Source: Malacoraja senta (taxonomy: Eukaryota). From it: a DNA stretch of 64,000 nt. Below are positions 579 through 33,604 of the stretch, in pieces. Each line of letters begins with the position of its first letter. Position 1 is the stretch's first letter. The stretch spans positions 434,001 to 498,000 of the forward strand of contig CM075990.1 of the NCBI GenBank assembly GCA_038087875.1, given 5' to 3'. A program made the position numbers and the translations under genes. The notes beneath the pieces were generated by a model. The model searched no databases and was not told the DNA's origin. It was given only the letters and a program-made list of their open reading frames with translations.

Positions 579-935
579 TGGCTTGGAATTGGGGCCAGAG
601 TTGTCTTTCGAGGTAGGCTCAATATTACGGCCAGGATTGCCTTCCGAGACAAGCTCGGAAATATGGCCAGAGTTGTCTTTCATGGCAGGCTCAGAATTAT
701 GGCCAGAGTTGTCTTTCAAGGCAGGCCCAGTATTATGGCCAGGATTGCCTTTCAAGACAGGCTCAGAAATAAGGCCAGAGTTGTCTTTCGAGGCAGGCTC
801 AGAATTATGGCCAGAGTTGTCTTTCGAGGCAGGCTCAGTATTATGGCCAGGATTACCTTTCGAGACAGGTTCGGGAACCTGGGCAGAGTTGTCGTTCAAG
901 GCAGGCACGGAATTATGGCAGGCCTGGCCTGTTCA
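579..935. repeat. 36-bp minisatellite (~9 units, gaattatggccagagttgtctttcgaggcaggctca) inside DIRS A RT; duplicate at ~14106-14462
   Basis: 12-aa period (ELWPELSFEAGS) in overlapping ORFs; units visible in the DNA. Confidence 0.95.
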
Positions 936-3464
936 TTGTGAAAGATGGAGGATGTCGGTTCATCCTTGATTTAACTCGCATGTGCAATATAGACTTTTCA
1001 GGATATGGAACTCCGTTACTGTCTAACAACTGATTTTCATAGGATCTTTATTGCATGCATCGATCTCAAAGATGCATACTATTCAGGTCCCATTCACAGG
1101 GATCACCTGAGACATTTGAAATTTATCTGGATGGGGCAATGCTAACAATTAATGCGTTGCAATATGGGCTAACTTCAGCTCCCAGGTAATTTACCAAATT
1201 ACTAAACCAGTGCTTGGACTGCTCAGAGCTCAAAAACACTTGTTATGGCTTAACTGGATGATATTCTAAACGCTGTATTTTGCTAAAATCAACTGTTTCA
1301 GCCACAAACTATATTTGAGAAATTGAGGTTCCTCATCCATCCAGTTAAATTTTTGTTGATACCAACTAGAGTTATTGATTATTCGGATTTACCTTTAACT
1401 ATTAATTTGTCTGTGACTCCGCCCTGGGGCAAGAGATTGGAATTAATAGAACCCTGTAACAACCTTGTTGTTATGAAGCAACCTTCTATTCATCAAGTGT
1501 AATTGGCAATATAGTAGCTGTGTTTCAGCTGTGCAAATTGGGTCTTTGCCTTATCAGAACTTACAATGTGCAATGTAGTAACCTCTCAAGTGCCACGTAG
1601 GTCATTGTTAACAGACCTATGCTATTACCAGCTGAAGCTACCAAAGTCACAATGGTGGACGAACAGTATTCAGCATTGCTCCAGTAGTTTTTGGTCAGTA
1701 AATCTTCAGTTATTTTACAAACTGATGCTAGTGCTCAAAGATGGAAAATTACGAATGCCATCTCTAGTTACGGAGGCGGATGGGATTTGCATGAGTTACC
1801 AATTCTTCAGTTATTGGTATCAACTACCTATAGACACTAGGTGCATTCTATGGGTTAAAGGGTTGTTGTGCGAATATGCATAATCTGCATGCTCAATTCC
1901 AAGTTGATACACTGTGGTGGTGGCATATGTTAGTCACATGGGTGCAATCAAGTCAAAGTATCCTGTCATAATTTACCTAACCTCATATGGCGCTGGTGTA
2001 TCATCACGTAAAATCAATGACAACACAGAATGGATGTTGGATCACAAAGTATTATATGACATTATGGCTCAATGGAACACTGAATATCGATATGTTTTCA
2101 TCCAGGCTCATTCACCGGTTGCATAAACATGTGGCATCACAGTGGCGAGAGATACATTCTCGCAACACGGGGGAGGAATGTTCTTTTATGTATTTTCTCC
2201 ATTTTGCCACATCAGTCGGGTCTTGCAATAAATTCAGCAAGATCCCGCTTCAGGTTTTTTTGTACTGTCTGACTGGCCTATGCAGCCATGGTTCCCGCTT
2301 ATGTTGGGAATAATAATAGAACCTTATATGGGTATTCTAAAGATAAAACTTTGCTGGTTCAGCCTGTGACTCGGGAAACCAGCCTCTGCATGATTAAATC
2401 AATTCATTGACGCAGACTCTGAGAGGACTTCTCCTGCGGCTCGAGTTGTCAGACCGATTCATGTATCCATGCAGAGTGCAGGGATAGCACCAAAAAAGCA
2501 GTACATTTCCTCTTCAGGAGATGGGAAGCATTTTGTTTAAATGCTATGTTACATATAATACGGCACGGATACTGACATCTTGGAGTTCATTTTCAAATGG
2601 GTCCTTGACAATAAATTAAGTTACAATGCCATTAACTGTGCCCAACGTGCCTTCTGATCATATTTGCTGCAGCGAACGGGACCCGCTCTGTCGGGTCTCA
2701 CCCTCTAATTTACCAGGGGGCTCCAGCTACATTCTTATCTTTGGCCCGGCTCATAAAGTAGTTATCCTCATGGTGCTGCTTTCAGCACAACGGGTCCAGT
2801 CATTACATAAATTGCGACTGGACAGGATGGTTACACCTGCAAATAATATAAATGTTTATGATTTAGTTAAGCAGAGCAGCCCAGGGGCGTCAGGTCTCAA
2901 ACTAGTTCTCATGGCATACCCCATGGACCTTTGGTTATGTGTGGTCACACATTACAACAATACATCAAGGTCATCTGGAGCCTTAGAGGCTCTGATACTA
3001 GCAATGTTTGTTAGTTACAAAAAACCTCATAAGAAGGTATCAGTTCAGACAATCTCCAGGTGTTTAAAACAGGGTTTTGGCTTATGCAGGAGTAGATACT
3101 CATATTTTCTAATCTCACTCCACCAGGGTTGCTACAACATCAGCAGCAAGGGTTATGTAGGTCTGCTGGACCACATCCTAGCGATTGCAGGATGGTCTAA
3201 CGAACGTGTTTTCCAAACATTTTATAATAACCCATTGCCAGACCAGGGGTATTTGCCAACTCTATTTTAGGTTATATTTTATAGTTTCCTCCCGGATGAG
3301 AGGGGTTACTATTATTATTATTTGTTCATTAAAAAGCATCAGCATGTTTTAAATCTATGTCATGTCTGTATGCATTATGAATGTTTCCCTTATCTGTGGT
3401 CAACTGATGCAGTTGTGCTTGTGTGGACTCGTTTCCACGGCATGAAATTACAGAGCTTTGAAAT

Positions 3465-3576
3465 CTTCACGTAGTCACTCACGTGACTCCGAAGTAAAAT
3501 AGTAAGATTAAACGAGAACTTACCAGTTTGAAGTTTGATCTTTATTTTATGAGGAGTTACGATGAGCGATTACGTG
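3465..3576. other. Internal complementary region (ICR) of DIRS A
   Basis: cttcacgtagtcactcacgtgactccgaagtaa is the reverse complement of the family left end; aatagtaagattaaacgagaacttaccag... is the reverse complement of the right end. Confidence 0.92.
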
Positions 3577-4208
3577 CCCTCCGCTCCCAACCCTCGTATC
3601 ATAAAGGTCATCTGGTAGTTCTAGTCCTCTCTAATCTTACTATGTTCAGTTCAACAACTGTTATCTGTGATTTCACACCGCTGCTTTGAAGATTGACGTG
3701 CATGCGAGCTGACGGCCTTCTTCAGGTAATCGCTCATAAAATAAATATCAAACTTCAAACTGGTAAGTTCTCATTTAATCTTACTATTAAACTGTACATG
3801 AGTACAATAAATCCATATACAAGTACAAGTAATTTACAAAGAGAAAAATACCAGAGTACACAATATAGTGTGACAGCTTTCCAGCATTACAGGGACAGGG
3901 AAATCACAAGGGCCACATTGAGTTATGTTGGGTGATCGGGATTATACCGTTTGCTGATGAGAGGACCTTTCAGTAGTCTGATAACAGCAAGGAAGTAGCT
4001 GTTCTGCCTGATGTGTGAAGGGAGAAAAGGGTTGTGAGGACTGTTTATGCTCTGGGTATCCTTCCAGCCTCATCACAGTTGCATCCATCCCTCATGAAGC
4101 TAGCTGGTCAGTTGGAACTCATAACTATTCCCCCATCCACTGGAGCCAGCAGCTTACATTCCACTGGTTGAGGCCACCCTTACTTCCCAGTGGAGTTCCA
4201 AATGGAGT

Positions 4209-4340
4209 CTAAAGAAGGATCTTGACCATAAACATCACCCATCCCTTCTGTCCAGAGATGCCACCTGTCCCGCTGAGTTACTCCAGCATTTTGTGTCTAT
4301 CTAAGGTGTAAACCAGCATCTACAGTTCCTTACTACATCT
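4209..4340 (+). repeat. Penelope-type terminal repeat fragment (duplicate ~17800-17930)
   Basis: Shares ccagagatgc..cctgtcccgctgagttactccagcattttgtgtctatc..aaaccagcatct with the Penelope fragment at 22536-22905. Confidence 0.7.
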
Positions 4341-4741
4341 TACTCCGACCAGCGCGGCCCGGGAAGGAAGCGGCTGTTCCAGATACTCCAATGCCGCTGA
4401 AGAGTCTTCTCCCGATGCCGGAACTCCATCATCCGGCGAGAGGGCCTATAACATCCAGCCACCGTTGCGACGAATGCGGAGGCCTCAAATAGGCCCCGAC
4501 CTCGGGTGAACTAAGAGGAGGAGGACTGGACTTTTTAGTGCCTTCCCTCACAGTGAAAAGTTGCTTCTGCTGTGGGGGAACGTTCCTGTTAAATTCTATA
4601 GTGTGTTGTGTCTTTTTTATTTTTTTATTTTATATGGATGTATGGTAATCTGATTTCTTCTCTGTAAAGCACTTTGGCTTCAACTTGATTTGATTTAAAA
4701 TTGCTCTATAAATAAAAAATTACTTACTTACTTACTTACTT
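4341..4741 (+). mobile_element. Non-coding SINE-like element with L2-type 3' end and (tact)n tail (duplicate ~17931-18332)
   Basis: GC-rich body followed by tgtaaagcactttg...ataaataaaaaa(ttac)n. Confidence 0.55.
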
Positions 4742-5011
4742 CCCAGTGGGCAGGAATAAACCTCAGCTCATGCCCACCAGACGCTGTGAAATTTTAATCC
4801 TGGACTTTGACCCAACCAGCCCAGGTGGGCTGAAACTGGATGCCAGGACACAGCTTTTAATATGTGATTGTCACAAAACTGCTTTTGCAGTCCAGCTGCC
4901 TGGCCTCTTTAATGTCGGTTTCCTTTGAGCTACAAAACATTGGGCTCTGGCAATACATTGGGTCCAGTCATTCCTACTCCTTGTATGGTCTCTGCTTCGG
5001 CCTTTGAACTT

Positions 5012-5083
5012 TGGGGCGGCACGGTGGCGCAATGGCAGAGTTGCAGCCTTACAGCACCAGAGTCCCAGGTTCCATCCTGACTA
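5012..5083 (+). mobile_element. tRNA-like SINE head interrupted by the Rex1/Babar LINE tail
   Basis: ggtggcgcaatggcagag (A box) and ggttccatcc (B box); matches the heads of other SINE copies. Confidence 0.7.
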
Positions 5084-6178
5084 AGATTCAAGATTCAAGA
5101 GAGTTTGTTGTCATGTGTCCCTGATAGGACAATGAAATTCTTGCTTTACTTCAGCACAACAGAACATAGTAGGCATGAATACAGAACAGATCAGTGTGTC
5201 CATATACCATTATATAAATATATACACACATGAATAATTAAACTGATTAAGTGCAAATAAACAGATAATGTGCTATTAATGTTCAGAGATTTGTCCGAGA
5301 CAAGTTTAATAACCTGATGGTTGTGGGGAAGTAGCTATTCCTGAACCTGGTCGTTGGCTCCTGTAACTTCTACCTGAAGGTAGCGGGGAGTTGAGTGTGT
5401 GGCCAGGATGGTGTGGTTCCTTGATGATGCTGCCAGCCTTTTTGAGGCAGCGACTGCGATAGATCCCCTCGATGGAAGGGAGGTCAGAGCCGATGATGGA
5501 CTGGGCAGTGTTTACTACTTTTTGTAGTCTTTTCCGCTCCAGGGCACTCAAGTTGCCGAACCAAGCCACGATGCAACTGGTCAGCATGTTCTCTTCACAT
5601 TGTGTTTCTGAATTTGTTGTTGTTGTTTTTTGGATCGAATTTCTGTCTTTAATTTGTGTATTGGTGATGTCTTTATAACTTATTTTACTCTGATTATATG
5701 TTTCTTTGTTAAATTTTGTAAGGTGTCCTTGAGACTTTTGTATAGGCGCCCATAAATAAAATTTATTATTATTATTATTATTACTGTGCACCTGTAGAAG
5801 TTAGAGAGTCCTCTCTGACAAACCGACTCTCCGTAATCTTCTCAGGAAGTAGAGGCGCTGATGTGCTTTCTTAATAATTGCATCAGTGTTCTCGGACCAG
5901 GAAAGATCTTCAGAGATATGCACGCCCAGGAATTTGAGGATCTTGACCCTTTCAACCATCGACCCGTTGATATAAACGGGACTCTGGGTCCCCATCCTAC
6001 TCCTTCCAAAGTCCACAATCAGTTCCTTGGTTTTGCTGGTGTTGAGGGCCAGGTTATTGTGCTGGCACCATATGGGCAGTTGCTCGATCTCTCTTCTGTA
6101 CTCTGACTCATCCCCATCAGTGATACGTCCCACAACAGTGGTGTCGTCAGCGAACTTGATGATGGAATTCACACTATG
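5084..6178 (-). mobile_element. 5'-truncated Rex1/Babar-clade LINE (RT C-terminus and 3' UTR); deleted duplicate ~18674-19492
   Basis: KFADDTTVVG..WCQHNNLALNTSKTKELIVDF..KFLGVHIS..AHQRLYFLRRL; SGRSYRS..TTRFRNSYFP; (tcttgaa)n tail on minus strand. Confidence 0.88.
5595..5783 (+). mobile_element. L2-like 3' end with (tat)n tail nested in the Rex1 LINE (duplicate ~19195-19384)
   Basis: gtaaggtgtccttgag...aggcgcccataaataaaatt(tat)n interrupts the Rex1 reading frame, which resumes on both sides. Confidence 0.7.
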
Positions 6179-6402
6179 ACGCGGCTGGACACTACAGGAG
6201 AAGGAAGATCGTCAAGGCAACCAGATGGTCTTTTGAGATTGAAAAGGGCTTCGAGGGGTAAAAGATAGCTTAATAGTATGATTATATGCTGAATAGTTTA
6301 AATTTAAAATTGTACTGGAAAGTATTCCTTGGATTTAGTAGCGAGAGAGTGATGCCACAAAAGTTTGATAGTATATATGGGCACTGAATAAATCTCTTAT
6401 AG

Positions 6403-7579: not shown

Positions 7580-7834
7580 GGAGAGGTCGGGCAGGCTAGG
7601 ACTGTGTTCCTTGGAGAGTAGGAGGATGAGGAGTGATCTGTTAGTGGAGAATAAGATCATGAGGGGAATAGATAGGGCAGATGCACAGGGCTTTTACCAG
7701 AGAAGAGAAATCAAGAACCAGAGGACATAGGGTTTATGGTGACAAGGGAGAGATTTAATAAGTACCTGAGGGACAACTTTTTCACACAGAGGGTGGTGGG
7801 TGCAGGAGATGAGCTGCCAGTGGAGGTAGTTGAG
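7580..7834 (+). mobile_element. Old CR1 3' fragment; continues at 11585-11608 and 22099-22240
   Basis: Degenerate R..RGDL / TRGH / FFTQRVV / ELPVEVVE; the 3' UTR resumes after two nested insertions. Confidence 0.75.
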
Positions 7835-8383
7835 ACCGGTCCTGTTGCTCAGAAGGGTAAGGAAAAGAAGAGGGGGGCAATATTAATAGGGGACTCTATA
7901 GTTAGGGGGTCAGACAGGCGATTCTGTGGACGCAGTCGGGAGACCCGGATGGTAGTTTGCCTCCCTGGTGCCAGGGTCTGTGATGTGTCCCAACGTGTCC
8001 AAGACATCCTGAAAGGGCAGGGAGAGGAGCCCGAGGTCGTGATACATATAGGTACCAATGACATAGGTAAAAAAAGAGAAGAGGTCCTGAAAGGAGAATT
8101 TAGGGAGTTAGGAGGGGAGTTAAAGAGAAGGACAGCAAAGGTAACAATCTCGGGATTACTGCCTGTACCACGCGACAGTGAGAGTAGGAATGGAGCGAGG
8201 TGGAGGATAAATGCGTGGCTGAAGGACTGGTGCAGAAGGCAGGGATTCAAATTTCTGGATCATTGGGACTTCTTTTGTGGAAGGTTCGACCTGTACAAAA
8301 AGGATGGGTTGCACTTGAACCTGAGGGGGACCGATATCCTGGCGGGGAGATCTGCAAAGGCTACTGGGGAGACTTTAAACTAG
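7835..8383 (+). CDS. CR1 ORF1 C-terminal SGNH/GDSL esterase domain (5'-truncated)
   Basis: IGDSIVR, LPGA, HIGTND and DGLHLN blocks. Confidence 0.88.
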   Translation, partial: TGPVAQKGKEKKRGAILIGDSIVRGSDRRFCGRSRETRMVVCLPGARVCDVSQRVQDILKGQGEEPEVVIHIGTNDIGKKREEVLKGEFRELGGELKRRTAKVTISGLLPVPRDSESRNGARWRINAWLKDWCRRQGFKFLDHWDFFCGRFDLYKKDGLHLNLRGTDILAGRSAKATGETLN

Positions 8384-8562
8384 AATGGTTGGGGGGAGGG
8401 ACTCAAATAGAGAATGCTATTAGACAGTGTGTGAGGCAGGAGGCAGAGAAGGAAAGCACTCAGACCCAACATGCAGGGGGGAAAGAAGAAAACAATAATA
8501 AACAGAGAATAAGAGGTGGTGGGGTTCTTAAATGGGTGAGCAGAGAAACAGAGGGGTGTAAA

Positions 8563-11485
8563 ATGCGGGCGGAAGCAATAGGTAGCAAGGTGAAAGGTAA
8601 AAGTGGCAGGCAGACAAATCCAGGACAAAAATCAAAAAGAGCCACTTTTCAACATAATTGTATAAGGGGTAAGAGCGTTGTAAAAACAAGTCTGAAGGCT
8701 TTGTGTCTCAATGCAAGGAGCATTCGTAATAAGGTGGATGAGTTGAACGTGCAGATAGCAATTAATGATTATGATATAGTTGGGATCACGGAGACATGGC
8801 TCCAAGGTGACCAAGGCTGGGAGCTGAACAATATTCAGGAGGGATAGAGAGAAAGGAAAAGGAGGTGGGGTGGCGTTGCTGGTTAGAGAGGAGATTAACG
8901 CAGTGGAAAGGAAGGACATTAGCTTGGAGGATGTGGAATCGGTATGGGTAGAGCTGCGAAACACTAAGGGGCAGAAAACGCTGGTGGGCGTTGTGTACAG
9001 GCCACCTAGCAGTAGTAGTGAAGTTGGGGATGGCATCAAACAGGAAATTAGAAATGCGTGCAACAAAGGCAAAACAGTTATAATGGGTGACTTCAATCTA
9101 CATATAGATTGGGTGAATCAAATTGGCAGGGGTGCTGAGGAAGAGGATTTCTTGGAATGTATGAGGGATAGTTATCTAAACCTACATGTAGAGGAACCAA
9201 CGAGAGAGCAGGCTATTCTAGACTGGGTATTGAGTAATGAGGAAGGGTTAGTTAGCAGACTCGTTGTGCGTGCCCCCTTGGGCAAGAGTGATCATAATAT
9301 GGTTGAGTTCTTCATTAGGATGGAGAGTGACATTGTTAATTCAGAAACAACGGTTCTGAACTTAAAGAAAGGCAACTTTGAGGGTATGAGACATGAATTG
9401 GCCAAGATTGACTGGCAATTAGTTCTAAAAGGGTTGACGGTGGATATGCAATGGAAGGCATTTAAAGACTGCATGGATGAACTACAAAAATTGTTCATCC
9501 CAGTTTGGCAAAAGAATAAATCAAGGAAGGTAATGCATCCGTGGATAACAAGGGAAATCAGGGATAGTATCAAAGCAAAAGATGATGCGTACAAATTAGC
9601 CAGAAAAAGCAGCATACCAGAGGACTGGGAGAAATTCAGAGACCAGCAGAGGAGGACAAAGGGCTTAATTAGGAAAGGGAAAATAGATTATGAAAGGAAA
9701 CTGGCAAGGAACATAAAAACTGACTGCAAAAGTTTTTATAGATATGTGAAGAGAAAGAGATTAGTTAAATCAAATGTAGGTCCCTTGCAGTCAGAAACAG
9801 GTGAATTGATCATGGGGAACAAGGATATGGCAGACCAATTGAATAACTACTTTGGTTCCGTCTTCACTAAGGAAGACATAAATAATCTGCCGGAAATAGC
9901 AGGGGGCCGCGGGTCAAAGGAGATGGAGGAACTGAGTGAAATCCAGGTTAGTCGGGAAGTGGTGTTGGGTAAATTGAATGGATTAAAGGCCGATAAATCA
10001 CCAGGGCCAGATAGGCTGCATCCCAGAGTACTTAAGGAAGTAGCTCCAGAAATAGTGGATGCATTAGTGATAATTTTTCAAAACTCTTTAGATTCTGGAG
10101 TAGTTCCTGAGGATTGGAGGGTAGCAAACGTAACCCCACTTTTTAAGAAGGGAGGGAGAGAGAAAACGGGGAATTACAGACCAGTTAGTCTAACATCGGT
10201 AGTGGGGAAACTGCTAGAGTCAGTTATTAAAGATGGGATAGCAGCACATTTGGAAAGTGGTGAAATCATTGGACAAAGTCAGCATGGATTTACGAAAGGT
10301 AAATCGTGTCTGACGAATCTTATAGAATTTTTCGAGGATGTAACTAGTAGAGTGGTTAGGGGAGAACCAGTGGATGTGTTGTATCTGGACTTTCAGAAGG
10401 CTTTCGACAAGGTACCACATAAGAGATTAGGATACAAACTTAAATCACACGGTATTGGGGGTTCAGTATTGATGTGGATAGAGAACTGGCTGGCAAACAG
10501 GAAGCAAAGAGTAGGAGTAAACGGGTCCTTTTCACAATGGCAGGCAGTGACTAGTGGGGTACCACAAGGCTCAGTGCTGGGACCCCAGCTATTTACAATT
10601 TATATTAATGATCTGGACGAGGGAATTGAAAGCAACATCTCCAAGTTTGCGGATGACACTAAGCTGGGGGGCAGTGTTAGCTGTGAGGAGGATGCTAGGA
10701 GACTGCAAGGTGACTTGGATAGGCTGGGTGAGTGGGCAAATGTTTGGCAGATGCAGTATAATGTGGATAAATGTGAGGTTATCCACTTTGGTAGCAAAAA
10801 CGGGAAGGCAGACTATTATCTAAATGGTGGCCGATTAGGAAATGGGGAGATGCAGCGAGACCTGGGTGTCATGGTACACCAGTCATTGAAAGTAGGCATG
10901 CAGGTGCAGCAGGCAGTGAAGAAAGCGAATGGTATGTTGGCCTTCATAGCAAGAGGATTTGAGTATAGGAGCAGTGAGGTTCTACTGCAGTTGTACAGGG
11001 TCTTGGTGAGACCACACCTGGAGTATTGCGTACAGTTTTGGTCTCCAAATCTGAGGAAGGACATTATAGCCATAGAGGGAGTGCAGAGAAGGTTCACCAG
11101 ACTGATTCCTGGGATGTCAGGACTTTCATATGAAGAAAGACTGGATAGACTTGGCTTATACTCGCTAGAATTTAGGAGATTGAGAGGGGATCTTATAGAA
11201 ACGTACAAGATTCTTATGGGGTTGGACAGGCTAGATGCAGGAAGATTGTTCCCGATGTTGGGGAAGTCCAGGACAAGAGGTCACAGCTTAAGGATAAGGG
11301 GAAAATCCTTTAAGACCGAGATGAGGAAAAACTTTTTCACACAGAGAGTGGTGAATCTCTGGAACTCTCTGCCACAGAGGGTAGTTGAGGCCAGTTCATT
11401 GGCTATATTTAAGAGGGAATTAGATGTGGCCCTTGTGGCTAAAGGGATCAGGGGGTATGGAGAGAAGGCAGGTACGGGATACTGA
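8563..11485 (+). pseudogene. CR1 ORF2 (APE endonuclease + RT); one frameshift near 8830, then 871 aa open
   Basis: [63 protein letters not shown]. Confidence 0.95.
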
Positions 11486-11608
11486 GTTGGATGATCAGCC
11501 ATGATCGTATTGAATGGCGGTGCAGGCTCGAAGGGCCGAATGGCCTACTCCTGCACCTAATTTCTATGTATCTATGTATCTATGTACCATAACAACTTTT
11601 AAAGTACA

Positions 11609-12302
11609 CTAGTCCAAGGGGGACTCATAGGGTCCTGTCCCCTCAACGGGTGTTTGCGGGGGTGGGGTGGTGGGCGGCCTGCGGCGTCACACACACACTA
11701 TCCACCCCCCCCCCCCCACACACACACACTAACCATTCTCCACACACACTTACCACCTCCCTTAATATTATATTAATACTAGACTAAGTGGGACCCGATG
11801 GGTCCCATGCTCACGGGAGGGCTGGTCCCCCAACGCAATATTCCACCTCTCCACCAATTGCAATATTGGTGGTCAGTGGAGACTGGGGGGCTTTCTGGAA
11901 CGCTAGTATGGGTGTTGTAGGCTGAAAGGACTGGTTTCCAGAGGACAAGTATGGACATTGTGGGCCAAATGGATTCTTGGGGTGGCAGCTCAGTCACTCA
12001 AACCTGATGTGCTGGCAGCTCACTCACGGCTGGTGGGCAGGCAGTTGACACGGTTATTCCTTGAAATTCCTTTTCAAGCAGGGTGCAAGGCCACCAAATT
12101 CAAATGCTGTTTCCTACCATTCCAAGCAGGGTGCAAGGCCACCAAATTCAAGTGCAGTTTCTTACCACTCCAAGCAGGGTGCAAGGCCACAAAATTCAAG
12201 TGCAGTTTCCTACCACTTCAAGCAGTGTGCAAGGCCACCAAACTCAAGTGCAGTTTCATGCCACTTCAAGCAGGGTGCAAGGCCACCAAATTCAACTGCA
12301 GT
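11609..12302 (-). mobile_element. Non-autonomous Helitron-like element, 3' part with two tandem hairpin+CTAG termini
   Basis: CTAG at 11609-11612 and 11779-11782, each next to a GC hairpin (tgggaccc-gat-gggtccca at 11789-11807) and followed by T on the minus strand. Confidence 0.75.
12076..12302. repeat. 48-bp minisatellite (caagcagggtgcaaggccaccaaattcaagtgcagtttcctaccactt), ~4.7 units
   Basis: 16-aa period QAGCKATKFKCSFLPL. Confidence 0.95.
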
Positions 12303-12498
12303 GGAGAGAAGGAATGGGTGACGTTTTGGGTCGAGACCCTTCTTCACACCGAATCGAGGAGCAGGAGGAATCACAGAGGGGGAGTAGCGAGAGAGGATGT
12401 TAGAGATCTCTCGTCAGAGAGAGGAAGAGAACATCTTCAAAGTAGACATACCTTGGGGAGATTTTGCATTGGAGCAGCAATAATGTGGTAGAAACGCC

Positions 12499-12685
12499 CT
12501 GCAGATGCAGGTTTAAACTGAAGATGGACATAAAATGCTGGAGTAACTCAGTGAGACAGGTCTGAAGAAGAGTCGCGACCCGAAACACCATCTATTCCTT
12601 CTATCCAGAGATGCTGCCTGTCACGCTGAGTTACTCTGAGATTTTGTGTCTATCTTCGGTTTAAACCAGCATCTGCAGTTCCTAC
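12499..12685. repeat. Inverted pair of Penelope-type terminal repeats around a hammerhead-like core
   Basis: Arms ~12499-12560 and ~12617-12678 are imperfect reverse complements; CTGAAGA..GAAA at 12562-12585. Confidence 0.7.
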
Positions 12686-12691
12686 TAAATT

Positions 12692-15600
12692 TTACTTCGG
12701 AGTCACGTGAGTGACTTCGTGAGGAAGGCAGTCAGCCCGCATGCGCATCATTACATCTAACGCATTGCGCAACGACTGACTGGCAGGCGCGTTGCTCCTT
12801 CCAGCGGTAAGTTTACACCTGCAGGTAAGTTTTAAACTTATTTCCAGGTTCTGTTTTTTGTCTGGCAGGAAGCTCTGTTACACAGTTTTCCTGCTGGATA
12901 CAATTTTGGGGCGAAGTCCGGACGGGCCGCGGGGAAACCAGTTATGGACCGTGGGGAGATCCCGTCGGCCGTCGGGTTCGCTACCTAAGTCGCTGACAAT
13001 GGGGTCAGCGGCTCCCAGACCGCTGTGGTTCCCCAGAAAGGGGGTAAATCCAAGAGTAAGTCGGTCTCGCCACCCGAGTCGCTGACAGTGTGGTCAGCGG
13101 TTCCCAGAAAGGGGGTAAAACCAAGAATAAGTCGGTCAGGCCTATGGACTCGGACGAGTCAGGCCAGGAGGCTTCCCCTCCGACATACCTGGGTACGTCC
13201 TCGGATGTTTAACCCACATGGAGCATGGATAGCGCCCTCGGGCGTTTATCCCACTAATGTGATGCTCCTGATATAGGTCCGTAGGAGGGGCCATATCAGC
13301 GCAGGTATCCTCTGGGGCCTGCGGCAGCACCTGTTTTCAGGGCTGCCTACGAATCTCCCTCTCTGTGGAGGGGAGTGCGAGTGGTCAGTGTGTAACTGAC
13401 TTCAAATTCGAAAGTATGTCCGTGGAACATACTGGAGCACATGCATATGGCTTCAAGGAAATACTCGCAAACGAAGGGATTGCTGCTGGAAGAGTTGGTT
13501 CCAGCCGTTAGCAGAAAACCTGGAAGGGGCCACAGTTCCCCTCACGCTACAAGTGCTGACTGTGAACAGCGCTATCAGGGGTGACATTGGAGGGGGCATG
13601 AAATCCAGAGAAATGAAACCAGCTGCTGAATCTTCTCTTCAGGTAAGACTTATCCAACAGGTAATACCTGGATGAGGAAGCATAAGCTGTCGGACTAATC
13701 AAGGTACCGACGACGACACACCCCACACCTTCATCGGCAGTAAGCAGTTCACTGAAGCTGGTGGCAGCTTGAAAGCTGGGCAGAGGTCTTTCAGGCCAAG
13801 GTCCAAGCCGGTCTCAGGAAAAATATGGAATCCACGCACCCTACCAGTCCTACTCTCCAATCAAGGAAGGAAATATAACCCGCATCAGGGGCCTTTGGGC
13901 TTACCATAAGACCACAGTTAACCATGGAGGTAGGTGGGTCTGGTTCTTGCGAAACATGGGGTATGTGGACCATTTACAAGTTGGTAATATTTACACTTGT
14001 TTTTTGTACAAATGACAATGATAACATGAGATTCAGATCCGTTTATAAACTAAAATAATAACATGTGATTGGTTTATTCTACACAGTATACAAGGGTTCC
14101 AAGCATGGCTTGGAATTGGGGCCAGAGTTGCCTTTCGAGGCAGGCTCAATATTACGGCCAGGATTACCTTCCGAGACAAGCTCGGAAATATGGCCAGAGT
14201 TGTCTTTCATGGCAGGCTCAGAATTATGGCCAGAGTTGTCTTTCAAGGCAGGCCCAGTATTATGGCCAGGATTGCCTTTCAAGACAGGCTCGGAAATAAG
14301 GCCAGATTTGTCTTTCGAGGCAGGCTCAGAATTATGGCCAGAGTTGTCTTTCGAGGCAGGCTCAGTATTATGGCCAGGATTACCTTTCGAGACAGGCTCA
14401 GGAACCTGGCCAGAGTTGTCGTTCAAGGCAGGCACGGAATTATGGCAGGCCTGGCCTGTTCATTGTGAAAGATGGAGGATGTCGGTTCATCCTTGATTTA
14501 ACTCGCACGTGCAATATAGACTTTTCAGGATATGGAACTTCGTTACTGTCTAACAACTGATTTCCATAGGATCTTTATGGCATGCATCGATCTCAAAGAT
14601 GCATACTATTCAGGTCCCATTCACAGGGATCACCTGAGACATTTGAAATTTATCTGGATGGGGCAATGCTAACAATTAATGTGTTGCAATATGGGCTAAC
14701 GTCAGCTCCCAGGTAATTTACCAAATTACTAAACCAGTGCTTGGACTGCTCAGATCTCAAAAACACTTGTTATGGCTTAACTGGATGATATTCTAAACGC
14801 TGTATTTTGCTAAAATCAACAGTTTCAGCCACAAACTATATTTGAGAAATTGAGGTTCCTCATCCATCCAGTTAATTTTTTGTTGATACCAACTAGAGTT
14901 ATTGATTATTCGGATTTACCTTTAACTATTAATTTGTCTGTGACTCCGCCCTGGGGCAAGAGATTGGAATTAATAGAACCCTGTAACAACCTTGTTGTTA
15001 TGAAGCAGCCTTCTATTCATCAAGTGTAATTGGCAATATAGTAGCTATGTTCAGCTGTGCAAATTGGGTCTTTGCCTTATCAGAACTTACAACGTGCAAA
15101 GTAGTAACCTCTCAAGTGCCATGTAGGTCATTGTTAACAGACCTGTGCTATTACCAGCTGAAGCTGCCAAAGTCACAATGGTGGACGAACAGTATTCAGC
15201 ATTGCTCCAGTAGTTTTTGGTCAGTAAATCTTCAGTTATTTTACAAACTGATGCTAGTGCTCAAAGATGGAAAATTACGAATGCCATCTCTAGTTACGGA
15301 GGCGGATGGAATTTGCATGAGTTACCAATTCTTCAGTTATTGGTATCAACTACCTATAGACACTAGGTGCATTCTATGGGTTAAAGGGTTATTGTGCGAA
15401 TATGCATAATCTGCATGCTCAATTCCAAGTTGATACACTGTGGTGGTGGCATATGTTAGTCACATGGGTGCAATCAAGTCAAAGTATCCTGTCATAATTT
15501 ACCTAAACTCATTTGGCGCTGGTGTATCATCACTTAAAATCAATGACAACACAGAATGGATGTTGGATCACAAAGTATTATATGACATTATGGCTGGATG

Positions 15601-17407
15601 GAACACTGAATATCGATATGTTTGCATCCAGGCTCATTCACCGGTTGCAAAAACATGTGGCATCACAGTGGCGAGAGATACATACTCGCAACACGGGGGA
15701 GGAATGTTCTTTTATGTATTTTCTCCATTTTGCCACATCAGTCGGGTCTTGCAATAAATTCAGCAAGAACCCGCTTCAGGTTTTTTTGTACTGTCTGACT
15801 GGCCTATGCAGCCATGGTTCCCGCTTATGTTGGGAATAATAATAGAACCTTATATGGGTATTCTAAACATAAAACTTTGCTGGTTCAGCCTGTGACTCGG
15901 GAAACCAGCCTCTGCATGATTAAATCAATTCATTGACGCAGACTCTGAGAAGACTTCTCCTGCGGCTCGGGTAGTCAGACCGATCCATGTATCCATGCAG
16001 AGTGCAGGGATAGCACCAAAAAAGCAGTACATTTCCTCTTCAGGAGATGGGAAGCATTTTCTTTAAATGCTATGTTACATATAATACGGCACGGATACTG
16101 ACATCTTGGAGTTCATTTTCAAATGGGTCCTTGACAATAAATTAAATTACAGTGCCATTAACTGTGCCCAACGTGCCTTCTCATCATATTTGCTGCAGCG
16201 AGCGGGACCCGCTCTGTTGGGTCTCACCCTCTGATACCCAGTTTATAAAGGATATATTTAACACAAGTTCTCCCAGTCCCAAGTACACGGAAGTATGGTA
16301 TATTGACATTGTGTGAACACTAATTTACCAGGGGGCTCCAGCTGCATTCTTATCTTTGGCCCGGCTCATAAGGTAGTTATCCTCATGGCGCTGCTTTCAG
16401 CACAACGGGTCCAGTCATTACATAAATTGCGACTGGACAGGATGGTTACACCTGCAAATAATATAAATGTTTATGATTTAGTTAAGCAGAACAGCCCAGG
16501 GGCGTCAGGTCTCAAACTAGTTCTCATGGTATACCCCATGGACCATTGGTTATGTGTGGTCACACATTACAACAATACATCAAGGTCATCTGGAGCCTTA
16601 GAGGCTCTGATACTAGCAATGTTTGTTAGTTACAAAAAACCTCATAAGAAGGTATCAGTTCAGACCATCTCCAGGTGTTTAAAACAGGGTTTTGGCTTAT
16701 GCAGGAGGAGATACTCATATTTTCTAATCTCACTCCACCAGGGCTGCTACAACATCAGCAGCAAGGGTTATGTACGGTCTGCTGGACCACATCCTAGCGA
16801 TTGCAGGATGGTCTAACGAACGAGTTTTCCAAACATTTTATAATAACCCATTGCCAGACCAGGGGTATTTGCCAACTCTATTTTAGGTTATATTTTATAG
16901 TTTCCTCCTGGATGAGAGGGGTTACTATTATTATTATTATTTGTTCATTAAAAAGCATCAGCATGTTTTAAATCTATGTCATGTCTGTATGCATTATGAA
17001 TGTTTCCCTTATCTGTGGTCAACTGATGCAGTTGTGCTTGTGTGGACTCGTTTCCACGGCATGAAATTACAGAGCTTTGAAATATTCACGTAGTCACTCA
17101 CGTAACTCCGAAGTAAAATAGTAAGATTAAACGAGAACTTACCAGTTTGAAGTTTGATCTTTATTTTATGAGGAGTTACGATGAGCGATTACGTGCCCTC
17201 CGCTCCCAACCCTCGTATCATAAAGGTCATCTGGTAGTTCTAGTCCTCTCTAATCTTACTATGTTCAGTTCAACAACTGTTATCTGTGATTTCACACCGC
17301 TGCTTTGAAGATTGACGTGCATGCGAGCTGACGGCCTTCTTCAGGTAATCGCTCATAAAATAAATATCAAACTTCAAACTGGTAAGTTCTCATTTAATCT
17401 TACTATT
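12692..17407 (+). mobile_element. DIRS1-like retrotransposon B with both termini and ICR (~17085-17195); duplicate of A; decayed
   Basis: ATT-ttacttcggagtcacgtgagtgac left end and cttact-ATT right end; colinear with A at offset 13527. Confidence 0.95.
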
Positions 17408-19825
17408 AAACTGTACATGAGTACAATAAATCCATATACAAGTACAAGTAATTTACAAAGAGAAAAATACCAGAGTACACAATATAGTGTGACAGCTTTC
17501 CAGCATTACAGGGACAGGGAAATCACAAGGGCCACATTGAGTTTGCTGATGAGAGGACCTTTCAGTAGTCTGATAAAAGCAAGGAAGTAGCTGTTCTGCC
17601 TGATGTGAGAAAGGAGAAAAGGGTTGTGAGGACTGTTTATGCTCTGGGTATCCTTCCAGCCTCATCACAGTTGCATCCACCCCTCATGAAGCTAGCTGGT
17701 CAGTTGGAACTCATAACTATTCCCCCATCCACTAGAGCCAGCAGCTTACATTCCACTGGTTGAGGCCACCCTTACTTCCCAGTGGAGTTCCAAATGGAGT
17801 CTAAAGAAGGATCTTGACCATAAACATCACCCATCCCTTCTGTCCAGAGATGCCGCCTGTCCCGCTGAGTTACTCCAGCATTTTGTGTCTATCTAAGGTG
17901 TAAACCAGCATCTGCAGTTCCTTACTACATCTTACTCCGACCAGCGCGGCCCGGGAAGGAAGCGGCCGTTCCAGATACTCCAATGCCGCTGAAGAGTCTT
18001 CTCCCGATGCCGGAACTCCATCATCCGGCGAGAGGGCCTATAACATCCAGCCACCGTTGCGACGAATGCGGAGGCCTCCAATAGGCCCCGACCTCGGGTG
18101 AACTAAGAGGAGGAGGACTGGACTTTTTAGTGCCTTCCCTCACAGTGGAAAGTTGCTTCTGCTGTGGGGGAACGTTCATGTTAAATTCTATAGTGTGTTG
18201 TGTCTTTTTTATTTTTATATTTTATATGGATGTATGGTAATCTGATTTCTTCTCTGTAAAGCACTTTGGCTTCAACTTGATTTGATTTAGAAGTGCTGTA
18301 TAAATAAAAATTACTTACTTACTTACTTACTTCCCAGTGGGCAGGAATGAACCTCAGCTCATGCCCACCAGACGCTGTGAAATTTTAATCCTGGACTTTG
18401 ACCCAACCAGCCCAGGTGGGCTGAAACTGGATGCCAGGACACAGCTTTTAATATGTGAATGTCACAAAACTGCTTTTGCAGTCCAGCTGCCTGGCCTCAT
18501 TAATGTCGGTTTCCTTTGAGCTACAAAACATTGGGCTCTGGCAATACATTGGGTCCAGTCATTCCTACTCCTTGTATGGTCTCTGCTTCGGCCTTTGAAC
18601 TTTGGGGTGACACGGTGGCGCAACGGCAGAGTTGCAGCCTTACAGCACCAGAGTCCCAGGTTCCATCCTGACTAAGATTCAAGATTCAAGAGAGTTTGTT
18701 GTCATGTGTCCCTGATAGGACAATGAAATTTTTGCTTTACTTCAGCACAACAGAACATACTAGGCATGAATACAGAACAGATCAGTGTGTCCATATACCA
18801 TTATATAAATATATACACACATGAATAAATAAACTGATTAAGTGCAAATAAACAGATAATGTGCTATTAATGTTCAGAGATTTGTCCGAGCCAAGTTTAA
18901 TAACCTGATGGTTGTGGGGAAGTAGCTATTCCTGAACCTGGTCGTTGCAGTCTTCAGGCTCCTGTAACTTCTACCTGAAGGTAGCGGGGAGATGAGTGTG
19001 TGGCCAGGATGGTGTGGTTCCTTGATGATGCTGCCAGCCTTTTTGAGGCAGCGACTGCGATAGATCCCCTCGATGGAAGGGAGGTCAGAGCCGATGATGG
19101 ACTGGGCAGTGTTTACTACTTTTTGTAGTCTTTTCCGCTCCAGGGCACTCAAGTTGCCGAACCAAGCCATGATGCAACCGGTCAGCATGCTCTCTTCACA
19201 TTGTGTTTCTGAATTTGTTGTTGTTGTTTTTTGGATCGAATTTCTGTCTTTAATTTGTGTATTGGTGATGTCTTTATAACTTATTTTACTCTGATTATAT
19301 GTTTCTTTGTTAAATTTTGTAAGGTGTCCTTGAGACTTTTGTATAGGCGCCCATAAATAAAATTTATTATTATTATTATTATTACTGTGGAGAATCGCTC
19401 GATCTCTCTTCTATACTCTGACTCATCCCCATCAGTGATACGTCCCACAACAGTGGTGTCGTCAGCGAACTCGATGATGGAGTTCACACTATGGACACTA
19501 CAGGAGAAGGAAGATCGTCAAGGCAACCAGAGTGTTTGCGGGGGGGGAGGTGGGGGGGAGGGTGGGGGGGGTGGGCGGCCTGTGGCCTATTCCACCTCTC
19601 CACAAATTCCAATATTGGTAGCCAGTGGAGGCTGGGGGGCTTTCTGGAACGCTAGTATGGGTGTTGTAGGCTGAAAGGACTGGTTTCCAGAGGGCGAGTA
19701 TGGACGTTGTGGGCCAAATGGATTCTTGGGGTGGCAGCTCAGTCACTCAAGCCTGATGTGCTGGCAGCTCACTCACGGCTGGTGGGCAGGCAGTTGACTC
19801 ACGGTTATTCCTTGAAATTCCATTT

Positions 19826-20246
19826 CAAGCAGGATGCAAGGCCACCAAATTCAAATGCTGTTTCTTAGCACTCCAAGCAGGGTGCAAGGCCTCCAAATTC
19901 AAGTGCAGTTTCCTACCACTTCAAGCATTGTGCAAGGCCACCAAACTCAAGTGCAGTTTCATGCCACATCAAGCAGGGCGCAAGGCCACCAAATGCAAGT
20001 GCAGTTTCATGCCATTTCAAGCAGGGTGCAAGGCCACCAAATTCAACTGCAGTTTGATGCCTTTTCAAACAGGGTTCAAGGCCACTAAATTCAAGTGCAG
20101 TTTTGTACCACTTCAAGCAGGGTGCAAGGTCACCAAATTCAAGTGCAGTTTTGTACCACTTCAAGCAGGGTGCAAGGCCACCAAATTCAAATGCAGTTTC
20201 ATAATTTCATGCAGGGTGCAAGGCCACCAAATTCAAATGCAGTTTC
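19826..20246. repeat. 48-bp minisatellite, ~9 units (remnant unit at ~20757-20808)
   Basis: Same unit as 12076-12302. Confidence 0.95.
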
Positions 20247-20756
20247 AATACAATACAATACAATACAATTTATTTGTTGTCATTTGAACCTCATTGAATT
20301 TCAAACGAAATTTGGTTTCTGCAGTCATACAACAAGAAAAGAACCAAAACACAACACAATTTACACAAACATCCATCACAGTGAATCTCCTCCTCACTGT
20401 GATGGAAGGCAAAGTCTTATCTCTCCCCTGCACTCCCCATTTTTCTCCCGATGTCAAAGTCAAAGCCCCCGGCGGGCGATGGTAAATAGGTCCCACTGCC
20501 ATTAAGGCCGCGCCAGGTGATGCAAGGCCGCGCTCCTGGTCTTGATGTTGGAGCCCCCGGCGGGAACTAGCAAGTCCCGTGGCCATTAAAGCAGTGCCGG
20601 GCAATGTAAGGCCCTGCTCCAGGTCACTTTCAACCCTGCAACTCGGGCGGGAGAATTTGCCATTGCGGAAGCTCCGAAAAGCGTTCTCCCACCAGGGACC
20701 CGCGAGCTCCCGGTGTTACCGTCCACTGGGCTTACGGCTGGAGCCTCCGAAGCTCC
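20247..20756 (-). mobile_element. SINE-like element with Rex1-type 3' stem-loop and (ttgta)n tail, inserted in the minisatellite
   Basis: Minus-strand aaatttcgtttgaa...caaatgacaacaaataaa(ttgta)n; minisatellite resumes after it. Confidence 0.6.
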
Positions 20757-21194
20757 ATTGCAAAACCACCACTTTCAAATGCAGTTTCATACCATTTAAA
20801 GCAGGATGAAACCACCATGAAACCACCATAAAACCACACAAAATACCATATAAACACTACATAAACACCACACTCACCGTTCAGTAGACATTCAGTGTGT
20901 TCAGTTGATTCACAGCTCAGACAGAGTCATGACCTCTCTCTCCCCCATCTTGCAGAGACCGAGCCACACCCACACTTCCGGGTTTGACAAGCCCTCCCCC
21001 TCCCACCGGAGGGGGCGTGGCCTTCATGGCAGGATTGACAGGAGAGAGATTCTCAACAATTTTTAAACACTAATAACACTTTTATTTTTCATTGATGGGA
21101 AGAATCCTCAGCACCTGATGAGCGGAGGGGGACTGAGTCAGATGGCCAAAAATCACAGCCGTAAGTGCTAGAATTATATCTAAAATCAATATAC

Positions 21195-21520
21195 AGGGGG
21201 GGGAGGGGGTAGGGAGGGGTGGAGGGAAAGGGGGAGGGAGAGGGGGGGAGAGAGAGAGAGGGGAGAGAGAGGGGGAGGGAGGGGAGGAGGGGAGGGTGGG
21301 GGAGAGGTGGTGTGGGGGGAGAGAGAGGGGGGAAGGGGGGAGAGGAGGTGGTAAAGAGGGGAGTGGGGGTAGAGGAGGGGGGAAGGGGATGACTAGGGGG
21401 GAGGGGGAGAGGATGGGGAGAGGAAGGGGGGAGGAGGGGGGACGAGGAGGGGGGAGATGAGGGGGGAGAGGAGGGGGGAGAGGGAGGAAGGGGGAGGGGG
21501 GAGAAAGAGGGAGAGGGCGG
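21195..21520. repeat. G/A polypurine low-complexity tract
   Basis: Almost only G and A for ~320 bp. Confidence 0.95.
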
Positions 21521-22535
21521 ACTTGAACTCGGCGAGCGGGCGGCGGGCCTCGGGACCTCGCTGGACGTCGCAGGACCGCTGAAGCCCTCGGAAACCCAAC
21601 CAAATTACTGCGTGTTCTGCGGCTTCAATCCAGAGTCCGGAGGGGAGGGCGGCTGAGCTGCGGGCGGAGCGCTGCGGACGGCCGGCATAGTGTGACTTGA
21701 CTGCGCGTGGGAGGTGACAAAATGACAGCGAGTCGCGGGGGTGGGGTGGGGTTAACGTAACTCGCAGCGCGTGCAAAAACAGTGGCCAGCAGGCTGCGCT
21801 TTGAAAACTCTGCGCAGCTGGCCACGAGGAGCAGAGCCATTGTGACGTCATCAGCTCATTGGCTTTAAAAAAGATCTCAGATTTGTGAACAATTTAAATA
21901 GAAAACTCAATAAATAATGAATCAAATTTTCAGATGAGGCGATTTTTGAAATCGTGAGGTAAATCTCTATCGGAATATGTAAAAATGTTACCGTTAGCGC
22001 GTCGTGTTTTCGAGGAGATGTGAATCACAGACAAACCAGACACACACACACAAATAAATACATCCACATCCAAGATCAGAGTTTTATAATAATAGAGATT
22101 TGGACAGGTACAAGGATAGGAAAGGTTTAAAGGGATATGGGCCAAAAATGGCAGGTGAGACTAGTGTAGATGGGGCACCTTGGTTGGGATCGGCAAGCTG
22201 GGCTGAAAGGCCTGTTTCCGTGTTGTATGAATCTATGACTCATTGCATTTAATTTAGTACTCATCGATATTGTGCCATTGATAGTACACAATTGGCATCC
22301 TAAATTAACCTGGATCACAAGCAAGGAGATTCACTCCATTGACATACAGTGGGATCATGTTAAATTCCCTCAGAAGACTCCTGATGCGTGCACACTGTGA
22401 TATGGTGCTCTGTGGAGATCAGGTAAACTAGTAGCGTACTGAAGATGTTTCAGAAGTAATTGAAATTTAACATCCAAATGATCACCTCTCTGTGATACGA
22501 TAGACAGGTCTCTGATAAAGATTGGCTTGATCAAG

Positions 22536-24565: not shown

Positions 24566-24765
24566 NNNNNNNNNNNNNNNNNNNNNNNNNNNNNNNNNNN
24601 NNNNNNNNNNNNNNNNNNNNNNNNNNNNNNNNNNNNNNNNNNNNNNNNNNNNNNNNNNNNNNNNNNNNNNNNNNNNNNNNNNNNNNNNNNNNNNNNNNNN
24701 NNNNNNNNNNNNNNNNNNNNNNNNNNNNNNNNNNNNNNNNNNNNNNNNNNNNNNNNNNNNNNNNN
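24566..24765. other. Assembly gap (200 N)
   Basis: Run of n. Confidence 1.
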
Positions 24766-27915: not shown

Positions 27916-28946
27916 ATTCTGACTTGGAAATAAATCACCATATCTTTATTGCTGCTGGATCTAGAGCCCTGGACTCCCTTATCCAGAACATTCATCAGAG
28001 GGTGAACACTTCATCACCATCTATTCATGGAAAATTAAGAATAGGCAATCGATATTTGCAATGTGCACCTAGATTCCATACGGCACAATAAAAATGCTTC
28101 CTATTACAGTCTGCTTGCTGCTACCATCAGGCAGGAGGTGCAGAAGCCTGAAGTCCCACACTACCAGCATCAGGCTACTTTCTAGCAACCATCAGGATCT
28201 TGAACCAACCTGCACAATACTAAACCTATCTCAGCAACAGAACACTACAGAACAACTTTGTGCACTACCATCACTTGTTTTCTAATTGTGTTTTGCACTA
28301 ATGTCTTGCTTTTACGTTTCTATGCGCTGCATTGTATAATTTATGTATAATTTATGTATCATTTATGTATTCTTTTGTTGTCTGAGTCTATGGATTTTAA
28401 TTATACCTATACCTCACTACAAGGTGAGGGTGGGAGGTGTGAGCAGTGCCTCGGAGGGGGGGGGGAGAAACTAAACGACTTTTTTTCCCCCCAATATCAT
28501 ATCGCTGGCCAGTAGTTTGACAGCCCTGCTTTAAACCAATGCCCTCTAGTTCTTGAATCACATATGCCGGAAAAAAGACTATGCATTCACCTTGTATATT
28601 CCCCTCGTGGTTTTTACTCACTTCTAAAACAATTTTTGCTTTATTTTGAATATCCAGCACCTGCAGATTTTGGTTCCATGAATGTCAAATGTACTGCAGT
28701 TTGCCATTTTAAATAGTGTGCTTAAGTGTCTAAAACAATTTTGCTTCGGAGTCACATGAGTGACTACGTGAAGAGCCTGCCAGCACGCATGCGCGTCATA
28801 TCGTCTAACGCATGGCGCAGCGACTGGTTGGGAGGCGCATTGCTCCTCCACCCATAAGTTAAAAAAGGCCTGCAGGTAAGTTTCCTTATTCTGAGGTCGT
28901 TTTTTGTTCTGGGAAATTTCTTTACAGAACGGTGATTTCCAGAGTA

Positions 28947-32563: not shown

Positions 32564-33604
32564 GTAGCAATGTTACAAAATTTTGAGATTTAAAAAATAA
32601 AGTCTGCAATTTATCACATCAGATAAAGCATAAAAAGAAGTTTAATTTGACACCTAATTCACTTTCATATCTTCAGTATTAAAGACGTTATGGCCATTTT
32701 CATACTCAGAAATTAGCATCTTGTTCCCTATTGCTTTTCCATTGACTTAACACAAAAGCTGTGATCGAGGACAGTTAAAAGCCCATAACTTTCTTAAAAA
32801 TTAAGATAACTGAAAGAAATTTTCAGTTATTATAGATTGAAGCATTCTGAAACAAATATGAAACAATCTTACTTAGAAGACATGAAAGTAAAGCATATAA
32901 TTAGTTAGTTACCTAATTGTAGCTAATTACAAAATTCAATTACTAGATCTAAACATCTATCAATTTCTTAAGAATAGATTAACATTTTTAAATAGCCTAA
33001 GTGTCCAAATAACATTCACACAATAATTCACAATATAACATAATTTTTAAATCTCATTTTCATGAATTTACAGGCCAAATGGAAGGAATTGAATGTTTAA
33101 TACCTGTAAATTAATGGGCATTTAAATCATCTTGTGAGTGAAGATTTCTGGAACGCGATCTTTTGGAACATTCATTTGCGGTGAATTTAACCCCGTATTG
33201 GCATGAAAAATACTGCCGTTAGTTCGGTGAATAAAATCACCGTGTCGCATGAAAAAATGTGAATTAAAGGCTTCTTAAGAAGCACTTTTATACATTTAAA
33301 GAAACCACTTTCATTTACCTGTCCAGTGTGTGAAATCCGTCCCCGTTATCGGCGTTGACGCTTCAGGAGCTGCTTTTAAAATTACTCCAGCGCTGACATT
33401 GACGATTTAATAAAAATAAAAAATTCACAAACGCCGCTAGAAACGATTTGTCAGCAAAAGGTTGTACTCCAACGAAATATAATTCAGGACAAGGGAGGAG
33501 AAACCGCGTTTTAACCCCGCCCCCCCTTAAAGGCGCCAAAATCACGCACACGGCCAGTGGCAGAATTACAGCGCGACTGAATGTAAGTTTTGTAACATAC
33601 CTAC
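32564..33604. mobile_element. Non-autonomous DNA transposon with ~17-bp TIRs inserted in the DIRS C recombinase
   Basis: gtagcaatgttacaaaa ... ttttgtaacatacctac, flanked by duplicated (c)ttatg(g). Confidence 0.88.

Follow-up and report, generated by a model that had tools for sequence, protein, structure and literature searches.

Positions 11609-22098 of the Malacoraja senta DNA analysed here (a stretch of 64,000 nucleotides, hereafter the window) form a 10.5-kb unit with a 5'-TC start and a CTAG-3' end on the minus strand, which splits an old CR1 element at A|T and encloses a copy of DNA found nearby. This structure, comprising the ends, the A|T split and the local copy, is real, in support of the initial annotation, which had described Helitron-type ends around a copy of neighbouring DNA. 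The unit is read as a non-autonomous Helitron of the TC...CTRR type. We tentatively suggest, as a plausible reading and not a firm one, that a small non-autonomous Helitron first inserted at A|T in the old CR1 and then grew to its present size on the spot, through repair of a break, without the unit having moved there whole. The features are listed in Table 1.

Table 1. Features of the unit, its template and its target, in window positions.
Feature	Positions	Strand	Basis or remark
Copy A, donor-like, running off the left edge of the window	1-6225	+	Alignment
Donor-side breakpoint	6225/6226		Blunt, at A|T, without Helitron sequence
Old CR1 (target), upstream piece	7779-7835	+	81% to old CR1 copy at 47499-47555
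Younger CR1 (esterase ORF1, EN/RT ORF2) inserted in old CR1	7840-11585	+	Left limit approximate
Left flank, 23 bp of old CR1, last base A	11586-11608	+	In-frame, gap-free rejoin
Outer Helitron-type 3' end: CTAG, 6-bp stem, 12-nt loop (weak)	11609-11649	-	Folding against shuffles
Inner Helitron-type 3' end: perfect 8-bp hairpin, CTAG then T	11779-11838	-	Homologous to outer end; missing from right piece
Left Helitron body, 48-bp minisatellite of 4.8 units, cut mid-unit at 12302	11839-12302	-	
Left junction	12302/12303		Cuts minisatellite unit and SINE mid-element; 1-bp microhomology; not A|T
Cargo, 7229 bp	12303-19531	+	13528-19531 shown as copy of 1-6225
DIRS1-like retrotransposon, 4.7 kb, dead	12689-17407	+	ATT ends, inverted termini, ICR 17086-17172, decayed RT/RH and YR
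SINE-like repeat	17799-17939		82% to 12560-12699; presumably a SINE
Non-LTR retrotransposon fragment, presumably Rex/Babar-like	18874-19495	-	Name from motifs; limits approximate; Atlas lead weak
Right junction	19531/19532		Blunt; Helitron side starts at 11650 equivalent, 41 bp short of outer CTAG
Right Helitron piece, 5'-TC end at 22098	19532-22098	-	Neither terminator; no Rep/helicase match
48-bp minisatellite of right piece, 9 units	19820-20247		
Retroposon-like insert, ~525 bp, microsatellite tail, nested in Helitron minisatellite	20248-20773	-	Class inferred
Right flank, remainder of old CR1 3' end, first base T	22099-22240	+	Homology and rejoin

Ends and Insertion Site

At the left end CTAG occupies 11609-11612 and is preceded by A at 11608, and at the right end the minus-strand TC (22098-22097) adjoins T at 22099, so that the TC...CTAG termini at A|T of the initial annotation are borne out. 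When the flanks are rejoined without the unit, the C-terminus of the old CR1 ORF2 is restored in frame; aligned with the window's young CR1, it shares 10 of 24 residues and needs no gap. Of the 81 join offsets tested, the best seven all entail zero net gain or loss, which indicates that there is no TSD, as had been claimed. Similar scores are obtained when the join is shifted by anything between -4 and +2 nt, offset 0 scoring 47 against a best of 50; it is therefore the Helitron signature that fixes the exact boundary. Both flanks are linked by a second old-CR1 copy (47372-47555), which covers only 3 nt to the left of the join and matches the right flank as well as the piece at 7779-7835; it follows that the old element was struck twice, once by the young CR1 and once by the unit.

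Two 3' Ends and Possible Mobility

The left Helitron piece carries two 3' ends, which the initial annotation had missed. It had described a hairpin followed by CTAG at the terminus, of which the CTAG stands; the fold at this outer end is weak, and the good hairpin belongs to the inner end at 11779. An equally good fold was obtained in 58 of 200 shuffles for the outer hairpin (z -0.48; rank 31 among the 290 CTAG sites of the window) and in 7 of 200 for the inner one (rank 3 of 290), and both CTAG ends (11609 and 11779) have T as the next base. Fourteen CTAG sites lie in 11601-19531 and four in the scanned part of the right piece (some 200 bp omitted); none folds like that at 11779, and the outer end comes next. 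Judged by these folds, a transposase setting out from 22098 would travel 10.3 kb before reaching a good terminator, the one at 11779, and since none lies in between, the description of the unit as potentially mobilisable appears structurally fair, given an active partner.

The weak outer hairpin, a boundary that slides by a few bases, the lack of a second full copy of the element within the 64-kb window and the lack of a Rep/helicase Pfam match in the 11 Helitron-piece frames tested would all suit ends that are not of Helitron type, the terminal words standing there by chance. Such a coincidence is nevertheless very improbable: the chance of both words at this join is about 4.5e-5, with four slide positions allowed, and CTAG|T occurs at two homologous ends, of which the inner has one of the top-ranking hairpins. 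An autonomous Helitron was rejected, given the missing Rep/helicase match and the ~2.1 kb of element sequence, which is too short. Spurious reading frames of the Helitron were also used as family probes, with none of 426 candidates scored, and the one match among 1.84 billion proteins (P0001) was discarded as chance, being an unrelated repeat protein matched over ~37 residues at 32-41%. The 5'-end motif had no match in metagenome contigs, and the minisatellite motif none in metagenome, prokaryote-genome or viral contigs; a vertebrate repeat is not expected in such contigs, and these counts are uninformative.

The Cargo and Its Template Copy

Positions 1-6225 and 13528-19531 differ by 105 substitutions in 5901 aligned bases (~1.8% divergence, ~98% identity) and by eight internal indels, which upholds the duplication claimed for 13528-19530 and moves its right limit to 19531. 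The duplication is demonstrated for 13528-19531 only, as the counterpart of 12303-13527 would fall outside the window. Copy A lies 5.4 kb from the insertion site of the unit, in direct orientation. In the RT region nine derived changes fall in copy A and ten in copy B, the copy within the cargo, with eight ambiguous; with derived changes in each, the two copies have aged side by side. A derivation of copy B from present-day copy A was rejected, because a loss of 89 bp sits in copy A. The non-LTR fragment in the cargo is 286 bp shorter than its counterpart in copy A.

Derived changes on either side (9 against 10) are also what two haplotypes would show, and a mis-join of two haplotypes through Helitron sequence during assembly has to be weighed, the more so with a 200-N gap 2.5 kb to the right. 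We regard it as improbable, however, given that the unit is free of N, that the usable overlap amounts to only 41-75 bp with 0-1 bp of homology at the junctions, and that 1.8% divergence with eight indels is, as a general expectation, high for alleles.

The fragment named Rex1 in the initial annotation is presumably a Rex/Babar-like element; the name derives from motifs, with a weak lead from the Atlas and no Pfam match. None of the DIRS-B, Rex-like or Helitron frames was assigned to a Pfam family (three sub-threshold chance rows were ignored).

The cargo had further been said to include a whole DIRS, which is accurate for the ends of the element and not for its coding region, which is shattered. 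ATT stands at 12689 and at 17405-17407, as the NTT end rule in the available text of the DIRS1-like definition has it (PMC3266345). The inverted and internal complementary matches pair 12689-12722 with 17119-17086 (94%), 17117-17172 with 17407-17352 (96%) and 12708-12750 with 17355-17313 (79%). The RT/RNase H region is recognised by tblastn against the RVT_1-bearing DIRS-like ORF of the window (E 3e-37). For the YR, 20 of 30 Atlas hits fell in Phage_integrase clusters (best 0.96; the family is on 15-30% of members), and Pfam gave no match for it. The ATT ends, the inverted termini, the ICR with its 3-bp circular junction and the RT/RH and YR remnants resemble DIRS1-like elements as described in that text (PMC3266345), unlike which every frame is broken here. 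The longest stop-free frame is 169 aa, and six stops and 16 frame-breaking deletions are common to both cargo copies, so the DIRS was dead before the duplication; an intact or active DIRS was rejected on account of its broken frames. The DIRS is passive, dead cargo, and its identity looks incidental. As no host gene was found in the cargo and the DIRS is dead, the functional impact is probably nil.

Two Helitron Pieces

The Helitron interior is present twice over (11839-12302 and 19588-20053, 93%). Outside the minisatellite the two pieces differ at 10 of 237 sites (4.2%), as against 98 of 5757 sites (1.7%) in the cargo (Fisher p = 0.01), where 237-bp windows reach a maximum of eight differences. 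The differences between the pieces are spread over the whole shared body, the order of units differs between their 48-bp arrays, and a segment of ~154 bp bearing the inner terminator is missing from the right piece; in the DIRS, by comparison, the 36-bp array counts 9.3 repeats in either cargo copy. By these features the left and right pieces look like two different copies of a Helitron family, although the excess is modest, coming from one comparison with p = 0.01, and gene conversion could produce the same picture.

The initial annotation had offered, as one of two routes, a tandem duplication broken inside the Helitron, and it is this reading that the unequal divergence of pieces and cargo fits poorly. 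A plain tandem duplication that breaks inside a single Helitron and is followed by deletions would explain the direct orientation, the local template and the 1-bp microhomology at the left junction. Yet it predicts one junction and would need three junction events, two of them further deletions, and it predicts equal divergence, whereas the divergence of the Helitron pieces is 2.5 times that of the cargo, and the pieces differ in array structure and carry the ~154-bp terminator-bearing segment on one side only. We consider it, too, improbable.

Junctions and Origin of the Unit

The right junction was corrected from 19530/19531 to 19531/19532, whereupon 11609-11649 and 19532-22098 abut as a continuous element of 2608 bp with no Helitron base lost or repeated. 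At the left junction, the missing upstream part of the SINE is shown by one full-length and two partly matching SINE copies. Past 6225, copy A runs into unrelated DNA from 6226 onwards, with no Helitron, and the breakpoint 6225/6226 falls precisely between A and T (A|TC as read on the minus strand), a site with a background frequency of ~7.5%. No homologue in the window spans 6225/6226; we infer that the join there is ancestral, on the one ground that the cargo homology ends exactly at the Helitron junction.

These observations bear directly on the other route of the initial annotation, rolling-circle capture by read-through, which fails from the visible donor: read-through needs the 5' part of a Helitron abutting the donor cargo, and copy A has none at 6226. 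The reading we favour, repair in place, starts from what is observed: the terminal signals, the insertion at A|T, a local copy of 98% identity, two junctions and a continuous element of ~2.6 kb. A non-autonomous Helitron of ~2.6 kb would have inserted at A|T of the old CR1, and would later have been broken next to the terminator stem, 41 bp short of its 3' end. The short left-hand end may then have paired with the 3' end of another Helitron copy, one bearing two such ends, and repair would have copied ~7.9 kb, namely a piece of that second Helitron (11650-12302) and 7.2 kb of neighbouring DNA, before the new strand joined the right end bluntly at 19531/19532 through filler-DNA or one-sided-invasion repair. 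One-sided invasion is known as a route of repair. A single break explains why the right piece starts precisely at the base matching 11650. On this reading the second Helitron piece should lie ~1.2-1.9 kb before position 1, with the equivalents of 12303 and 11609 near -1224 and -1918; alternatively, the junction at 12302/12303 may stem from a template switch.

Repair in place is supported by a donor without Helitron at 6225/6226 and by Helitron pieces that look like different copies, and it is favoured because the template is local (5.4 kb), whereas Helraiser, in the available text of PMC4778049, showed no local hopping or clustering in 701 events. Filler-DNA capture inside Helitrons has been argued for (PMC6544945, in the sections available), as has recombination between Helitron copies (PMC13342296, likewise). 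Against it stands the donor breakpoint at A|T, a site that a repair join would hit ~7.5% of the time, and which favours transposase action. Strand invasion would also have had only a short end of 41 bp to work with, and a repair tract of 7.9 kb is long. In addition, the filler-DNA model as set out in the available text of PMC6544945 expects 2-13 bp of junction homology, compared with 0 and 1 bp here.

The A|T donor breakpoint and its blunt join lend weight to an end bypass made by a transposase. A 3'-truncated Helitron at the A|T of 6225/6226 on another haplotype would have read through 7.2 kb, with an older Helitron stump supplying the CTAG, and the 10.5-kb product would have inserted 5.4 kb away; in a variant, one-ended cis strand transfer would occur at the same A|T. 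The right piece, with neither terminator and an end immediately short of the outer stem, agrees with this. So do, within the text available, the hairpin-less Helraiser, which carried 1.6 kb of flank in at least 36% of events, with non-CTAG ends (PMC4778049), and bat Helitrons that acquired new 3' ends beside pre-existing 5'-truncated copies (PMC4224331; PMC4778049); plant Helitrons are stated in a review to insert near other Helitrons (PMC12477314). We nonetheless hold end bypass to be unlikely, though not negligible. With no Helitron at the visible donor site, it calls for a haplotype since lost, and in the Helraiser assays no local hopping was seen. The truncated end, moreover, does not resemble CTRR, the element would have had to run past the strong inner terminator, and no second copy of the unit was found within the window. 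It is quite doubtful that a vertebrate Helitron outside the bats bypassed its end, took up 7.2 kb with a DIRS complete at its ends as well as a portion of another Helitron, and landed again 5 kb away from the donor.

Locality and two different Helitron pieces would equally be accounted for if the resident Helitron had undergone unequal crossing-over with another copy lying upstream of the window, giving a tandem duplication, and a separate 5.4-kb deletion (6226 to the 11649 equivalent) had cut back the second unit. Recombination of Helitron copies is invoked in the available text of PMC13342296, and young local duplications occur elsewhere in the window. Two events are needed, however, and the A|T is again left a coincidence; moreover, with differences across the whole shared body, the crossover would have to fall within the last 41-75 bp, beside the deletion endpoint. 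We judge this course of events quite unlikely.

Relation to Known Helitrons

Bat Helitrons carry both retrotransposons and DNA transposons (PMC4224331, available text), and usual validation of a Helitron consists of multiple copies or empty sites (same source). The unit is like the non-autonomous Helibat of vesper bats, as far as PMC4224331 and PMC4778049 are available, in its TC/CTAG ends, its A|T target and its transposon-bearing cargo, and also in the formation of new 3' ends beside 5'-truncated copies. Helibat elements, however, measure 123-5503 bp and were validated in this manner, according to the text available, whereas the present unit reaches 10.5 kb, was encountered a single time and sits at a distance of 5.4 kb from its template. 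Maize helA offers a parallel in its internal second 3' end, which has been explained by nesting, with multiple termini in 28.7% of helA (PMC3288121, sections available); unlike there, where 99 of 100 internal ends have lost CTAG, the internal CTAG is kept here and has the better hairpin. Host DNA between intact element ends is likewise found in insect Hel1 and expected under the filler-DNA model (PMC6544945, available text). The Hel1 inserts described there span tens to hundreds of bases, are amplified and have 2-13 bp of junction homology; the insert here, in contrast, is 7.9 kb long, was seen once, has 0-1 bp of homology and includes part of a second Helitron. The choice between filler DNA and end bypass is still called unresolved in the text available of that paper. 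Neither a Helitron-DIRS composite nor a direct test of local Helitron capture was found in the literature searched, which took in only a minority of subscription papers.

If repair in place holds, the locus could serve as a clean single-locus example of Helitron-bounded composites arising without transposition, an ordinary local rearrangement in which TC...CTAG ends around a duplicate are no proof of rolling-circle capture. If a transposase was at work, a vertebrate Helitron would have carried out local reinsertion and a 10-kb read-through. End bypass in particular would amount to a natural local hop, unlike the Helraiser assays, and to an element about twice the largest catalogued in bats, and further genomic copies would be possible. 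With donor and product side by side at one locus, the mechanism of capture could be decided with little more sequence.

Sequence Context

Of the sequence words in 11500-21150, fractions of 0.27-0.46 were present in 20 of 22 sequencing runs (8 organisms, 10 studies), none reaching half; these fractions are not counted as evidence. The window consists almost entirely of repeats, among them CR1 LINEs, a Tx1/L1-type LINE, several DIRS-like elements and SINEs, and contains other young local duplications. Its SINE and CR1 tails resemble what we take to be those of cartilaginous fishes.

Insertions into the old CR1 element and the right Helitron piece

The 3' end of an old CR1 element (window 7779-11608 and 22099-22240) was the target of two insertions about 23 bp apart, namely the 10.5-kb Helitron-bounded unit and a young CR1 that carries an esterase ORF1. 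Within the right Helitron piece of this unit, the minisatellite is interrupted by a retroposon-like insert of about 525 bp with a microsatellite tail (20248-20773), past which the array restarts at 20774.

DIRS1-like copies and neighboring SINEs

Both ends of the DIRS1-like retrotransposon carried as cargo in the unit are adjoined by similar SINE copies (12600-12699 and 17839-17939), and their 86% match extends some 10 bases into the left end of the DIRS element, an extension that is probably due to chance. Within the element, directly upstream of its RT, lies a coding-like tandem array of 36-bp units. Additional DIRS1-like copies are evident in the window at 28737, 39541-44035, 52084 and 62042-63766, and three of these share the left-end motif of the cargo element; the copy at 39541-44035 has both ends and an ICR, and that at 62042-63766 retains a 574-aa RT frame.

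Other rearrangements in the window

A Tx1/L1-type LINE with a 1016-aa RT frame lies within a rearranged block at 53155-61697, and further young local duplications are seen at 28223-28613, 33510-33854 and 34206-34936. An assembly gap of 200 N (24566-24765) is located 2.5 kb to the right of the Helitron-bounded unit.

Repeats and duplications within the window
Feature	Position	Second position	Identity	Copies
Inverted repeat, LINE block	53573-55015	60263-61697	94%	
Repeat, LINE block	53155-53584	55030-55459	96%	
Repeat, LINE block	55445-55871	59837-60263	96%	
Young inverted duplication	28223-28613	34206-34594	98.7%	
Young duplication	33510-33854	34592-34936	99.1%	
36-bp tandem array	586-919	14113-14446		9.3
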